From the IMG/VR virus record IMGVR_UViG_3300044858_003284: a stretch of DNA of 64,000 bases; one strand, written 5' to 3'. How positions within the stretch are numbered: position 1 is the first letter of the stretch; every line of letters starts with the position of its first letter. Positions 1,218 to 9,196 of this stretch are shown in pieces. The notes under the pieces were generated by a model. The model had not been told where the DNA came from. It saw nothing but the letters and a program-made list of their open reading frames with translations, and searched no databases. Source of the DNA: a virus. Both the position numbers and the translations under genes were made by a program.

Positions 1218-2363
1218 ATGCAGTCATTTATAACGTTCTTGAGGGAAGCCACATCCATCGATGATGAGATGTTGGGTCATCTTACTCATACGAAAGACCT
1301 GCCACACGAAGATCCAAGACATACTCAAACTGCAATAGACCTACTACACCAATTTCACAAAAAAAGAATGGGACAAGAAAGCTCTGTTGGTGCATCATTA
1401 AAAACTGACGGTGGTGCCTCTGTTCACGTCATACACGATAAAGAAGGTGTTGGTGTTTCAGATAAACACAGAATTGCCAGAGGTGTCATAGCAAGAACAC
1501 CTAAAGAAGTTGACCAGCATTTTGGTCATAAACCAGACTATGCTGCTTCACTCAAAAGATTATTAAAACATGGCCACGAATTCGTCAATAAAGGTCACCA
1601 TGTTCAAGGAGATTTACTGCATACACCAGATTCTCCTGGAGAAAAATCTGATGGTCATACTACCACAACACCAAATAGAATCACATACAAAGCCAAAACA
1701 AAAGCACCAATTGGTTTAGCAGTTCATACTGAGATTACAAAAGGTGTGGCTCATGGTGTTAGTAAAAAGGCACTTAAACATAGTGATAATGTTTTTGTTC
1801 CTGAACACGAATACAAACCTGATCCAGATACTTATTCAGAAAAAGATAGGCAAGCCACAGAGAAACATTTAGAAAAAGCAAAAGAGTTACTAAAGAATCA
1901 TAGCACAGAACATTTGACACCAGAACACATTAATGTAAAGAAAGGTGGACACTTTACTACATACTTAAATAGAACAACAAGAAAAGGTCAAACTGCTTCC
2001 GTGGAAGGTTATAAAAAACATTTAGATGATGAAGCAAAGAAATCAGTTGGTAAATTAAAGACTCCTGTTGGTCAAGTAAGAAAACAAGCAGAGTATGATA
2101 AGTTGAAAAAACATGTTGATGATAATTCTAAACACTTTCAAAGGTCTTTAGATATTAGACATCACTTGGGTCAAGCTACAGAACATTTATTAAAAGGCGT
2201 AACACATCCAGATATGGAAACAAGTATAGATGGCAAAAAGTCCCAAGGTGAAGGTATTGTATTGCAACAAAAAGACAAAGCAGGAAAGATGAGACCGGTA
2301 TCTAAACTAGTTCCTGTAAAAGTTTCAAACTCAATTTTAAACAATCCTAGGTTTGCAAAGTAA
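1218..2363 (+). CDS. DUF6267-like protein with ligase-type nucleotidyltransferase motifs and capsid-targeting N-terminus
   Basis: ATG 1218 after AAGGA; LKTDGG, VQGDLL, GEGIVL, SKLV; starts MQSFITFLRE. Confidence 0.6.
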   Translation: MQSFITFLREATSIDDEMLGHLTHTKDLPHEDPRHTQTAIDLLHQFHKKRMGQESSVGASLKTDGGASVHVIHDKEGVGVSDKHRIARGVIARTPKEVDQHFGHKPDYAASLKRLLKHGHEFVNKGHHVQGDLLHTPDSPGEKSDGHTTTTPNRITYKAKTKAPIGLAVHTEITKGVAHGVSKKALKHSDNVFVPEHEYKPDPDTYSEKDRQATEKHLEKAKELLKNHSTEHLTPEHINVKKGGHFTTYLNRTTRKGQTASVEGYKKHLDDEAKKSVGKLKTPVGQVRKQAEYDKLKKHVDDNSKHFQRSLDIRHHLGQATEHLLKGVTHPDMETSIDGKKSQGEGIVLQQKDKAGKMRPVSKLVPVKVSNSILNNPRFAK

Positions 2364-2364
2364 G

Positions 2365-4158
2365 ATGAAATCATTTTTAGACATAATCAAAGAAGAACAA
2401 CAAGGTGAAAAACACCATGTTATTACCTTTGGCCGAATGAGTCCTCCTACTGCAGGCCATTTAAAATTAATTGATAAAGTAAAAGAAGTTGCAAAGAAGA
2501 ATAATGCAACTCATTCTATCATTGTTTCACATACACAAGATACAAAAAAGAATCCTTTAACGGCTCAACAAAAGGTTAAACATCTAAAACGGTATGTTTC
2601 TGGTCCAATAACAGAAGCAAAAGAATCTGGCGGTACTAATATCGTAGCGGCTTCAAAAGAGAAACCAACAATTCTACACCATGCAGCAGAAGCACATAAG
2701 AGTGGCGTAACACATCTTCATGTGGTCGTTGGTTCTGATCGTGTTAAAGAGATGCACCATTTATTACACAAATATAATGGTGTTGAGGCTGGCCATGGAA
2801 AATACCACTTTAAAAAGATTACGGTACATTCTGCTGGACATCGTGATCCAGACGCTGAAGGCACAGAAGGTATGTCCGCTACTAAGATGAGAGAACATGC
2901 AAAGAACAAGAACTTTGGTGAGTTTAGGAAAGGTGTGCCATCTCACGTTTCAGATACTCATGCAAAAGAGTTAATGCACGATACTCGTAAAGGTATGGGA
3001 CTACATGAAACTACAGATCGTGGTATGTTCAAAGCTATTTTTGTTACCGGCGGACCTGGTTCTGGTAAAGATATCATCATTCGTGAAGCCATTTCTGAAG
3101 CCAAGATTGTTGAACTAAATTTCATACAGGCTCAAGAGTATTTGGCTGATAAACAAAAATTGTCTGAAAAAACAAGTGATTACAGGCAAGAAGCAATTCG
3201 AAATCGTGGTCCTTTAATCATTAATGGTCCTGCAGATGATACAACCAGAATATCATATATCAAAGAAGAATTAGAAGAATTAGGATATGAAACAATAATG
3301 GTATTTGTGAATACCACCAATGAGACCAGTAGAGAAAGAAACTCTTTATTGTCCAGGATGATGGTTGAATCGATACGACAAGAAAAATGGTTGAAATCTC
3401 AGAAAAATACTAAATATTTTAAAGAGACCTTTGAGAAATTTGTATCTTTTGATAATACAGGAGATATAGATAGTAAAGAGCAAGATATACATGAAATCTA
3501 TGAAAAAACTAATGATTTCTTGGATACCAAAGTTCTTAACGAAACCGCCGAAGATTGGTTGATTCGAAACTCTAAATTAAATATTAATTCATTATACAAG
3601 GAACAAAAAAATGTTAAAAGCCCTAATCGATTTCTTAAAAGTAAAGCCAACGCAAACCGTAGACCCTTGCAAGACAACAACTCCCCCTTCATCCAATTCC
3701 AGCGAAAGCTCGGAAAAATCGATGACGTCCGTGACGGAGACATCGCCAGCAACTCAGGTTACACCTTCCGCACCTACGAAGAAGGCCAGCCCAAAGTCGA
3801 AGTCCAGCCCCAAGCCAAAGAGCCAAACTTCCAAAAAGACAAAGAGCAAATAAATAAAAAGAAACGATGGGTCAATAGCGCCTCTGGTGCTATTCGATCC
3901 CAAGGTGTAGGACCAGAATTCGATACTCGCCAACAGGGAACAGTATACCCTATGTCAGGAATGGGCGATGTAACCTACCGTGAAGAATTTAAAAAGTTTA
4001 AAGAATTTGTAGAAGCCATAGACGATCCAGGTGCCAATGATATGGGACTTGCTGGGTCGATGTCTGGCGCAAGTAACAAAGAACCTTTAATGACCCCAGC
4101 AGATAAATTTGCTTTATCTGGTGTAACTATAAAGAAGAAGAAAAATGCTAAAATTTAA
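2365..4158 (+). CDS. Cytidylyltransferase-like (HxGH) domain fused to a P-loop kinase domain and a C-terminal tail
   Basis: FGRMSPPTAGH, VVGSDRV, SATKMR; Walker A GGPGSGKD; starts MKSFLDIIKE. Confidence 0.8.
   Translation: MKSFLDIIKEEQQGEKHHVITFGRMSPPTAGHLKLIDKVKEVAKKNNATHSIIVSHTQDTKKNPLTAQQKVKHLKRYVSGPITEAKESGGTNIVAASKEKPTILHHAAEAHKSGVTHLHVVVGSDRVKEMHHLLHKYNGVEAGHGKYHFKKITVHSAGHRDPDAEGTEGMSATKMREHAKNKNFGEFRKGVPSHVSDTHAKELMHDTRKGMGLHETTDRGMFKAIFVTGGPGSGKDIIIREAISEAKIVELNFIQAQEYLADKQKLSEKTSDYRQEAIRNRGPLIINGPADDTTRISYIKEELEELGYETIMVFVNTTNETSRERNSLLSRMMVESIRQEKWLKSQKNTKYFKETFEKFVSFDNTGDIDSKEQDIHEIYEKTNDFLDTKVLNETAEDWLIRNSKLNINSLYKEQKNVKSPNRFLKSKANANRRPLQDNNSPFIQFQRKLGKIDDVRDGDIASNSGYTFRTYEEGQPKVEVQPQAKEPNFQKDKEQINKKKRWVNSASGAIRSQGVGPEFDTRQQGTVYPMSGMGDVTYREEFKKFKEFVEAIDDPGANDMGLAGSMSGASNKEPLMTPADKFALSGVTIKKKKNAKI
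3611..3853 (+). CDS. Overprinted small Pro/Ser/Thr/Lys-rich protein in the +1 frame
   Basis: AAGGA at 3598-3602; host-frame third positions turn C-rich over exactly this ORF. Confidence 0.6.
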   Translation: MLKALIDFLKVKPTQTVDPCKTTTPPSSNSSESSEKSMTSVTETSPATQVTPSAPTKKASPKSKSSPKPKSQTSKKTKSK

Positions 4159-4465
4159 ACAATTCATATCTGAGGAATATCTTGATGAAAAGTCGCCAGC
4201 ATGGCAACGTTCTGCCGGTAAAGATCCAGAAGGTGGTTTAAATCGTAAAGGTATCGCTTCTTATCGTAGAGAAAATCCAGGCTCTAAGTTATCGATGGCT
4301 GTTACTACTAAACCATCAAAACTGAAAGCAGGATCAAAAGCGGCTAATCGTAGAAAATCATTCTGTGCTCGTATGGGTGGAATGAAGAAACGATTGACAT
4401 CCGCTAAGACAGCAAGAGATCCAGATTCTAGAATTAACAAAGCATTACGCAAGTGGAACTGCTAA
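4145..4465 (+). CDS. Conserved basic phage protein (DUF6321-like) with capsid-targeting N-terminus
   Basis: SPAWQRSAGKDPEGGLN...RRKSFCARM...ALRKWNC; starts MLKFKQFISE. Confidence 0.7.
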   Translation: MLKFKQFISEEYLDEKSPAWQRSAGKDPEGGLNRKGIASYRRENPGSKLSMAVTTKPSKLKAGSKAANRRKSFCARMGGMKKRLTSAKTARDPDSRINKALRKWNC

Positions 4466-8453: not shown

Positions 8454-8459
8454 CACAAT

Positions 8460-8846
8460 ATGTTTGATGATTTGAATGATGAAAATTTTATGATGTATGC
8501 GATGAAGTGTTATATGACACCAAATTGTATTATGTCTGAATTCGAAAGTGATATCAAAAGAACGAAATATTTAAAAAGGTTATTTCGTAGATATAAGATC
8601 ACAAAAACCCTCAAAGAGCGGTTGATATTAAATCACATTATTTTATTGAATAATGTTTTTGGTCCAGAAGACACATCTAGAATATTATTCTATAAGATTG
8701 ATAAACGAGATTATGATATTTTGAAAACGTTTCTAATATATTTGGGTATCATGCCTGACATTGTTAGAAGTGTTAACGGAAAAAATATTATATCAGCTGA
8801 CATTCCGGTTGATTTACATATTGCACAGATATTAAGGCAAATATGA
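8460..8846 (+). CDS. Conserved T4-like phage hypothetical protein
   Basis: LNDENFMMYAMKCY..RLILNHIILLNNVFG. Confidence 0.7.
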   Translation: MFDDLNDENFMMYAMKCYMTPNCIMSEFESDIKRTKYLKRLFRRYKITKTLKERLILNHIILLNNVFGPEDTSRILFYKIDKRDYDILKTFLIYLGIMPDIVRSVNGKNIISADIPVDLHIAQILRQI

Positions 8847-9196
8847 ATTACGATATATTAACATTTAAAGATTTTGTAAGAGTTCAAGCAGATTTGAACC
8901 ATCTAAGACATAAACTGAAAAGTCCAATGACTGATGAAGATAGAATCGAACTCTTTAATCAAATATCGGACAAAACAAAAGAAGTAATGCATCATCTCAA
9001 TACTTTACATCAAGGTCAACTTGGCGAAGGTGTTGATCTGGATGAAGATGGTGTTGCTGTTGCTGGGCCAACTAATGTTGTTGGTCGTGGTGCAATCGCT
9101 GGCACAGGTGGACCTGGTGGTGAACCAGGTGTTAATTTGAAAAAGAAAAAAACTCCGGTTCTTATGTCTATTCGGAGAAAACCAATAAAGGCATAA
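8843..9196 (+). CDS. Hypothetical protein, possible head cargo
   Basis: LTFKDFV near the N-terminus; LDE followed by a Gly-rich PTNVVG peptide. Confidence 0.5.
   Translation: MNYDILTFKDFVRVQADLNHLRHKLKSPMTDEDRIELFNQISDKTKEVMHHLNTLHQGQLGEGVDLDEDGVAVAGPTNVVGRGAIAGTGGPGGEPGVNLKKKKTPVLMSIRRKPIKA

Follow-up and report, generated by a model that had tools for sequence, protein, structure and literature searches.

A decapeptide-tagged gene cluster in a T4-like phage

We analysed a stretch of 64,000 nucleotides (hereafter the window) from the virus record IMGVR_UViG_3300044858_003284, in which a gene cluster at positions 1218–9196 contains four genes that begin with a decapeptide resembling the capsid-targeting sequence (CTS) of bacteriophage T4. 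The window has a G+C content of 36% and comes from an uncultured, aquatic T4-like myovirus. It encodes the gp61 primase, both ribonucleotide reductase subunits, CobS and the gp32 single-strand-binding protein, together with baseplate hub, tail-tube and gp5-like lysozyme proteins. The cluster lies between the genes for the gp41 helicase and the gp61 primase, with the same gene order as in Pelagibacter phage HTVC008M, Methylophilales phage Melnitz and marine cyanomyoviruses, the nearest isolates by protein comparison. The lineage is Kyanoviridae-like, and its nearest isolates infect SAR11 and OM43. A megablast search of the cluster against phage records returned no near relative at the DNA level. 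Comparisons were made with a related set of at least 80 IMG/VR loci having 56–93% identity at the protein of gene 2365 (genes are named by their start positions). The tagged genes are the following:

1218–2363 (+): DUF6267 protein of 381 residues, pI 9.5 (Pfam DUF6267, E 1e-26); tag at nucleotides 1218–1247
2365–4158 (+): protein of 597 residues; tag at nucleotides 2365–2394, then a variable linker, a predicted HxGH nucleotidyltransferase domain (residues ~17–180), a predicted P-loop kinase-like domain (Walker A at 229) and a basic tail
4145–4465 (+): DUF6321 protein of 106 residues (Pfam DUF6321, 4e-19); tag at nucleotides 4145–4174
7971–8453 (+): acidic alpha/beta protein of 160 residues, pI 4.1; tag at nucleotides 7971–8000

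The four decapeptides, MQSFITFLRE (1218), MKSFLDIIKE (2365), MLKFKQFISE (4145) and MFSFRRYVSE (7971), are present as read in the initial annotation of this DNA. Each begins at the first ATG of a long open reading frame (ORF), and the 1218 start is preceded by a good ribosome-binding site. Their consensus is M-x-x-F-x-x-[F/Y/I]-[L/I/V]-x-E.

The decapeptide is rare and confined to the cluster

The pattern drawn up in the initial annotation, with an aromatic residue at position 4, hydrophobic residues at 7–8 and Glu at 10, matches 5 of the 602 in-frame ATG codons of the window: the four gene starts of the cluster and, as the fifth, a later ATG within a 48-codon ORF at 35731. Amino-acid composition predicts 0.083 matches among 125 gene starts, which gives a Poisson probability of 2e-6 for four or more. 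No further gene start in the window fits the pattern. Because the pattern had been defined after the sequences were seen, we ran two tests that are independent of it. In an ungapped BLOSUM62 comparison with the tag of T4 IPII/IPIII, the four starts took ranks 1–4 of the 125 gene starts, with rank 4 tied, and four of the top five fell within one 10-gene block (permutation p = 0.0045). In the second test, a profile trained solely on the tags of 69 DUF6267 homologues was applied across families and scored the starts of genes 4145, 2365 and 7971 at +22.4, +9.3 and +8.9 bits; the runner-up among 575 reached +0.6 bits, against a background mean of −26 (sd 9).

In relatives the pattern is equally rare and falls mainly on cluster gene starts. 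The scan of related genomes suggested in the initial annotation found matches at 4 of 949 and 4 of 1358 in-frame Met codons in two genomes of 136 and 168 kb, of which three and two, respectively, are cluster gene starts. A total of 237 matches were counted in 1.04 Mb of related loci, every one on the coding strand of the cluster. First ATGs account for 216 of them, and at least eight unrelated protein families carry them. The same tag stands on further unrelated proteins in relatives, and it recurs in Melnitz, HTVC008M and S-SM1. Five additional tag-bearing families from relatives had no match in Pfam, which left a guess that one of them is a HAD phosphatase unsupported.

Might the resemblance have arisen by chance, by shared ancestry of the four genes, or as a nucleotide-level feature of translation starts? 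The after-the-fact definition of the pattern would favour chance, as would the preference of AT-rich genomes for Lys, Phe and Ile codons near starts; against it, the pattern-independent tests return the same four genes. Shared ancestry is contradicted by the mature parts, which belong to different Pfam and PHROG families, in agreement with the initial view that the tag heads otherwise unrelated proteins. The recurrence in Melnitz, HTVC008M and S-SM1 speaks against this group of explanations as well. A signal at the RNA level is ruled out by synonymous codon variation at the fixed residues, with F7 encoded by TTC in 24 cases and TTT in 22, and L8 by six different Leu codons. This variation indicates selection on the peptide rather than on the RNA. 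We therefore consider this group of explanations extremely improbable.

Two other starts in the window lie close to the T4 tag in the BLOSUM62 ranking. A 140-residue gene at 18805–19227 (+; PHROG 461) starts with M-K-N-I-Y-E-I-F-D-E and ranks sixth; it has Glu at position 10 and no aromatic residue at 4. A 55-residue basic ORF at 41653–41820 (+), starting with M-K-T-N-K-D-F-R-L-S, is tied for fourth place. It resembles the start of T4 IPI, lacks the aromatic residue at 4 and the Glu at 10, is conserved in the related genome G001 (about position 135450) and received no family assignment.

Conserved positions coincide with the functional map of the T4 tag

The T4 record confirms M-K-T-Y-Q-E-F-I-A-E as the start of IPII and IPIII, the sequence to which the initial annotation had compared the cluster, and gives M-K-T-F-K-E-F for IPI. 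According to reviews of the work of Mullaney and Black, the first ten residues of IPIII are enough for packaging (PMC9026906). Genetic analysis of the T4 tag assigned targeting to residues 4 and 7 and processing to residues 8 and 10, and Asp at position 10 stops cleavage while leaving targeting intact (PMC9026906). The T4 protease gp21 cleaves after Glu in L/I-x-E.

The families from aquatic phages are constrained at exactly these functional positions, with variation elsewhere, as seen in 80 related contigs and 120 database homologues. The 44 distinct DUF6267 tags all share M1, F4 and E10, and nearly all have F or Y at position 7 and L or I at 8, whereas the entropy exceeds 2 bits at positions 2, 5 and 9. 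The 46 distinct tags of gene 2365 orthologues have a near-invariant M-K-S-F-L (43–46 of 46 per position) and E10 in all except one. Tags of gene 4145 orthologues read M-[L/K]-[K/T]-F-K-Q-F-[L/I/V]-x-E, and F4 and E10 are invariant in the family of gene 7971 (13 homologues). All four window tags have F4; position 7 is occupied by F, I, F and Y, and the tags end in L-R-E, I-K-E, I-S-E and V-S-E, all of the form [L/I/V]-x-E. At the level of sequence, the tags thus agree with T4 at both the targeting and the processing positions. One homologue starts with M-K-T-Y-K-Q-Y-I-A-E, identical to T4 in 8 of 10 residues.

The tag also keeps its place at the extreme N-terminus. Glu10 is followed by an acidic linker, variable in sequence and length, and then by the conserved domain. 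Some database homologues have an extra module between tag and domain, and the tag still comes first. About three quarters of the 120 DUF6267 homologues listed begin with the tag.

Short amphipathic N-termini are common, and the UvsX N-termini of HTVC008M and Melnitz are loosely like the motif. The decapeptide could be an amphipathic N-terminal helix for association with a membrane or assembly site, for docking of a partner or modifying enzyme, or for stability, with no encapsidation involved. Such a helix would have to account for fixed positions that coincide with the T4 functional map, including Glu10 within the protease site. The T4 head machinery of the lineage and the presence of a tag-bearing orthologue in virions, both described below, also argue against this explanation, which we regard as quite improbable. 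Modification of the tag by a radical-SAM enzyme was considered and dropped, since neither the window nor two related genomes encodes a C-x3-C-x2-C enzyme.

Predicted products of the tagged genes

In gene 1218, K62-x-D64-G65, E345-G346 and K363 are invariant in 42 homologues and correspond to motifs I, IV and V of ATP-dependent RNA/DNA ligases, motif I being the one that holds the adenylated lysine. The combination of K-x-D-G, E-G and Lys reads as the signature of a covalent nucleotidyltransferase. In the AF2 model (pLDDT 90.5), residues 1–9 lie outside the fold with values below 50. The best structural matches are RNA and DNA ligases, with 5cot first (Z 7.7, 184 aligned residues, rmsd 4.1) and with T4 Rnl2 and Rnl1 at Z 6.5 and 6.4; the Foldseek E-value of 0.008 and the Z range of 5–7.7 are middling. 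A helical insertion at residues 208–325 has no counterpart in these ligases. The model thus predicts a ligase-like nucleotidyltransferase.

Gene 2365 matches CTP_transf_like in Pfam with an E-value of 1.5e-5 (PF01467, 25.6 bits, cut-off 21), TIGR00125 with 3e-7 (30.4 bits, cut-off 27.7) and a Zeta_toxin-like family with 3e-3. The PHROG assignments are cytidyltransferase (2e-60) and ATPase (2e-8). We predict an HxGH nucleotidyltransferase of the NMNAT/cytidylyltransferase type, joined to a P-loop kinase-like domain. An NadR-type NMNAT was considered and is unsupported, with 16.5 bits vs 341. NCBIfam otherwise gave weak NMNAT hints and no more, and sequence searches of genes 1218 and 2365 against the PDB gave nothing useful.

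The product of gene 4145 is very basic (pI 10.6, 25% K+R), and its DUF6321 domain is found at the C-terminus of several larger PHROG families. The AF2 model of gene 7971 is of moderate quality (pLDDT 70, low in the tag region), and a structure search with it returned no match above Z 4.0.

Head protease and virion proteins in relatives

Each of the three related genomes searched encodes a Peptidase_S77 (gp21-type) protease that scored above cut-off, and genes for portal, scaffold and major capsid proteins adjoin it. Two of these prohead proteases, L092 (G001:C1:53480–54124, −) and L097 (G003:C1:18131–18775, +), start with M-K-L-I-K-E-[I/V]-x-E. Their residues 4 and 7 are hydrophobic and residue 9 is Glu, which echoes the suggestion that the gp21 N-terminus is a targeting propeptide. 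The small core protein encoded upstream starts with M-[S/K]-[E/D]-F-V-S.

The gene 2365 orthologue of cyanophage S-SM1, T4-GC190, starts with the canonical tag M-K-K-F-S-A-F-L-N-E, and the copy in S-SSM5 is also tagged. Table S8 of Sullivan et al. (2010, PMC3037559) lists 25 peptides of this cytidylyltransferase from purified S-SM1 virions, together with its neighbours GC1453, GC1454, GC1455, GC425 and GC426. The same cytidylyltransferase was found in S-CREM2 virions, and cytidylyltransferases are recurrent in cyanophage virion proteomes (PMC10665884). Neither PMC3037559 nor PMC10665884 mentions a targeting tag or cleavage. The DUF6267 orthologue of S-SM1 has no tag and does not appear in parts 8–10 of Table S8 (PMC3037559).

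Untagged genes, module joints and promoter region

The remaining features of the cluster are the following:

1154–1161 (+): TATAAATA, a late promoter box of the T4 type, 57 nt upstream of the start of gene 1218
3988–4014 (+): tag-like segment F-K-K-F-K-E-F-V-E in the tail of gene 2365, with Glu at position 9
4481–5656 (+): basic modular protein of 391 residues without a canonical tag; N-terminus conserved and of another type; Cys-containing C-terminal module from residue 240 (nucleotide 5198)
5665–7251 (+): basic repeat protein of 528 residues, pI 9.6; N-terminus conserved and of a different type (K-K-L-K-D-I-V-K-K-N-P)
7291–7971 (+): untagged head-protein-like gene (PHROG 613 'head protein', 5e-12)
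8460–8846 (+): untagged DUF7207 gene, cyanophage T4-GC198 (Pfam DUF7207, 7e-35)
8843–9196 (+): untagged gene of 117 residues with an out-of-register F-x-x-F motif, as seen in orthologue N-termini

The internal motifs pointed out in the initial annotation are real but out of register. In F-K-K-F-K-E-F-V-E the Glu is at position 9, and the motif of gene 8843 is offset by five residues and has no fixed Glu. The segment in the gene 2365 tail is present in all orthologues and, with varying spacing, always abuts a conserved junction at which Glu is followed by A-I-D-D-P-G. It is a possible second protease site or fused module. A comparable joint lies in gene 4481. In several relatives (L077, L078, L054, L012 and L068), the C-terminal module is a separate gene whose canonical tag abuts V-K-K-P-T-G. 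The fused junction in the window reads Q-V-D-E followed by V-K-K-P-T-G and hence keeps the hydrophobic-x-Glu site. Relatives split or fuse modules at hydrophobic-x-Glu joints, and by analogy with the two processed ends of T4 Alt, the joints in genes 4481 and 2365 might be cut by the head protease.

Gene 5665 received no family assignment from Pfam or NCBIfam. It contains two tandem modules of about 50 residues, [F/Y]-L-S-S-R-G-I-[N/D]-P-K-F-V ... H-A-K-S ... W, which in relatives stand directly behind the N-terminus of shorter genes. The N-terminus of gene 7291 is similar to that of S-SM1 GC425 (E 3e-4), and gene 7291 probably corresponds to the gene for T4-GC425, a virion protein of cyanophages with the label 'S-layer domain'. 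Gene 8843 has no similarity to S-SM1 GC426, and its only match to T4 gp61.1 is an F-K-x-F stretch.

The late promoter box has two copies in the window, the other at 18703–18710, 95 nt before the 18805 gene, and it lies 50–68 nt upstream of the gene 1218 orthologue in 75 of 77 related loci. It is situated in a 136-nt gap, the sole sizeable one; from there to 12283 no gap exceeds 39 nt. The operon is thus late-looking, and we predict late transcription from the box and its conservation. Scans for sigma-70 promoters and terminators performed no better than on shuffled sequences. Directly 5' of the box is TGTTG. The stretch between the box and the gene 1218 ribosome-binding site contains an 18-nt inverted repeat (1183–1200, +), composed of GCAAC, the 8-nt centre C-A-[A/T]-A-G-T-G-T, and GTTGC. 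Of 51 distinct regions upstream of the gene in related loci, 47 retain the repeat, and paired changes preserve the symmetry (GCAAT/ATTGC in three, ACAAC/GTTGT in one). The repeat might form a hairpin in the mRNA or serve as an operator.

The operon runs into lysis genes and several cluster genes have no tag, so that the initial proposal of the late operon as a payload overreaches. The packed unit continues at 9200–11496 (+) into a lysis-type cassette comprising a membrane/spanin-like protein, a lipoprotein-like ORF and a glycoside hydrolase 19-type endolysin, as well as a staphylococcal-nuclease homologue with a signal peptide (9827–10261).

Discussion

The interpretation of the decapeptide as a T4-type capsid-targeting sequence is supported, because every prediction that could be tested at the sequence level held. 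Since the tag matches the T4 loading signal position by position, the phage probably packages enzymes in the same way, and we think it likely that the decapeptide is a working CTS whose cargo is loaded, trimmed and injected. We infer the following course of events. The operon would be transcribed late, and the N-terminal tag, with its aromatic residue at 4 and hydrophobic residue at 7, would attach the proteins to the scaffolding core while the prohead assembles. A gp21-type head protease would then cut after Glu10 in [L/I/V]-x-E, thereby freeing the mature protein within the head, among the DNA, from where, when the virion next infects a cell, it would leave via the tail along with the genome. 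Two predicted enzymes, a ligase-like nucleotidyltransferase and an NMNAT-like nucleotidyltransferase fused to a P-loop kinase-like domain, would make up the cargo together with the small, very basic DUF6321 protein and the acidic product of gene 7971.

Several observations weigh against this interpretation. Two cargo proteins of 43 and 67 kDa must unfold to exit through the tail, for which T4 Alt is the sole known precedent of such size. The window itself does not include the genes for the head protease and the scaffold, which were identified in relatives only, at ~60–90% protein identity. The authors of PMC10665884 warn that carry-over could account for virion proteins detected in CsCl preparations. 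Some S-SM1 cluster proteins found in virions have no tag, nor do some cyanophage ligase-like orthologues; the tag is therefore neither needed for virion association nor universal.

The chief alternative is that the tagged proteins enter the prohead core and act there, in the core or scaffold, in DNA condensing or otherwise on DNA in the head, rather than as delivered effectors. Five consecutive cluster proteins are basic (pI 9.3–10.6, 16–25% K+R), as would be expected of DNA-associated internal proteins, a head-protein-like gene lies within the cluster, and nothing in the sequence indicates ejection. Two of the cargo enzymes, on the other hand, retain full catalytic signatures (K-x-D-G; HxGH and Walker A) for which a closed head offers no obvious substrate, and the CTS-bearing T4 proteins that have been studied are all ejected with the DNA (PMC9026906). 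On balance, we regard a role confined to the head as unlikely.

The T4-like phages that infect SAR11, OM43, cyanobacteria and freshwater bacteria rank with the world's most abundant viruses, and to our knowledge almost nothing is known about the proteins that they deliver beside their DNA. Capsid targeting by the CTS is textbook T4 biology. A loading tag compatible with that of T4 would provide a simple sequence rule for predicting the injected proteins of aquatic phages. It would explain why 'cytidylyltransferase' recurs in cyanophage virion proteomes, and it would point to enzymes, ligase-like and NMNAT-like/kinase, as effectors in the first minute of infection. The tag has already been suggested to be a general loading device (PMC9026906), and T4 specialists might find its extension to aquatic phages plausible rather than shocking. 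Our literature search found no prior description of the tag in aquatic T4-like phages (cyanophages, pelagiphages) or of DUF6267, and no paper treating gp61.1 as a head or CTS protein.

A wider reading has three parts, which we offer jointly as a speculation and consider doubtful as a whole. The interval between genes 41 and 61 might be an ancient cargo locus of the whole T4 superfamily; T4 gene 61.1 might be a remnant of that locus and encode a fourth CTS protein that has been overlooked; and in aquatic T4-like phages the locus might have expanded into a plug-in operon that injects an enzyme kit before phage expression. If so, the kit would combine a repair enzyme of the ligase-like type with an NMNAT-like/kinase enzyme and an acidic protein resembling inhibitors, and could mend RNA or DNA nicks made by the host or restore nucleotide cofactors drained by abortive-infection defences.

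Comparison with known systems

The ejection proteins of phiKZ-like phages (SPN3US, 201phi2-1) share with the proposed system head-packaged cargo that includes enzymes and a gp21-related protease that cuts after Glu. They differ in having propeptides mostly of at least 100 residues, the motif A/S-x-E and no shared decapeptide. T4 Alt, an ADP-ribosyltransferase of ~70 kDa, is likewise an enzyme that is packaged in the head, trimmed by gp21 and injected, and, being processed at both ends, it offers a parallel to the conserved junction near the C-terminus of the gene 2365 protein. Unlike the proteins described here, Alt has a 6-residue propeptide (I-T-E) and no canonical decapeptide, and its enzymology differs. 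T4-GC190 and its neighbours in S-SM1 and S-CREM2 offer an orthologous gene, the same gene order and presence in virions as measured by mass spectrometry. The S-SM1 and S-SSM5 copies of GC190 are tagged, whereas some cyanophage copies, such as that of P-HM2, have no tag.

The T4 internal proteins IPI, IPII and IPIII have the same ten-residue N-terminal tag, with an aromatic residue at 4, a Phe-type residue at 7, an aliphatic one at 8 and Glu at 10. Common to both systems are also the tagging of unrelated proteins, a Peptidase_S77 protease (found here in relatives), a late promoter (predicted here) and small basic cargo. The mature parts in the aquatic, Kyanoviridae-like lineage are unrelated to any of the T4 internal proteins and include large predicted enzymes, and their genes form one operon between genes 41 and 61, whereas those of T4 are scattered.

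When the DNA form of the pattern was searched over the whole T4 genome, the gene starts matched were those of ipII, ipIII and gene 61.1 only. The 54-residue product of gene 61.1 (L127:667–831, −) has a Gly-rich middle and a lysine-run tail resembling the tail of gene 2365. Homology between gp61.1 and that tail was considered and set aside, since a pairwise E-value of 0.014 and different PHROG families make the resemblance no more than suggestive. Gene 61.1 starts with the canonical tag M-K-T-F-K-E-F-I-K-E and is located beside the primase gene, in the interval between genes 41 and 61 that is syntenic with the cluster.

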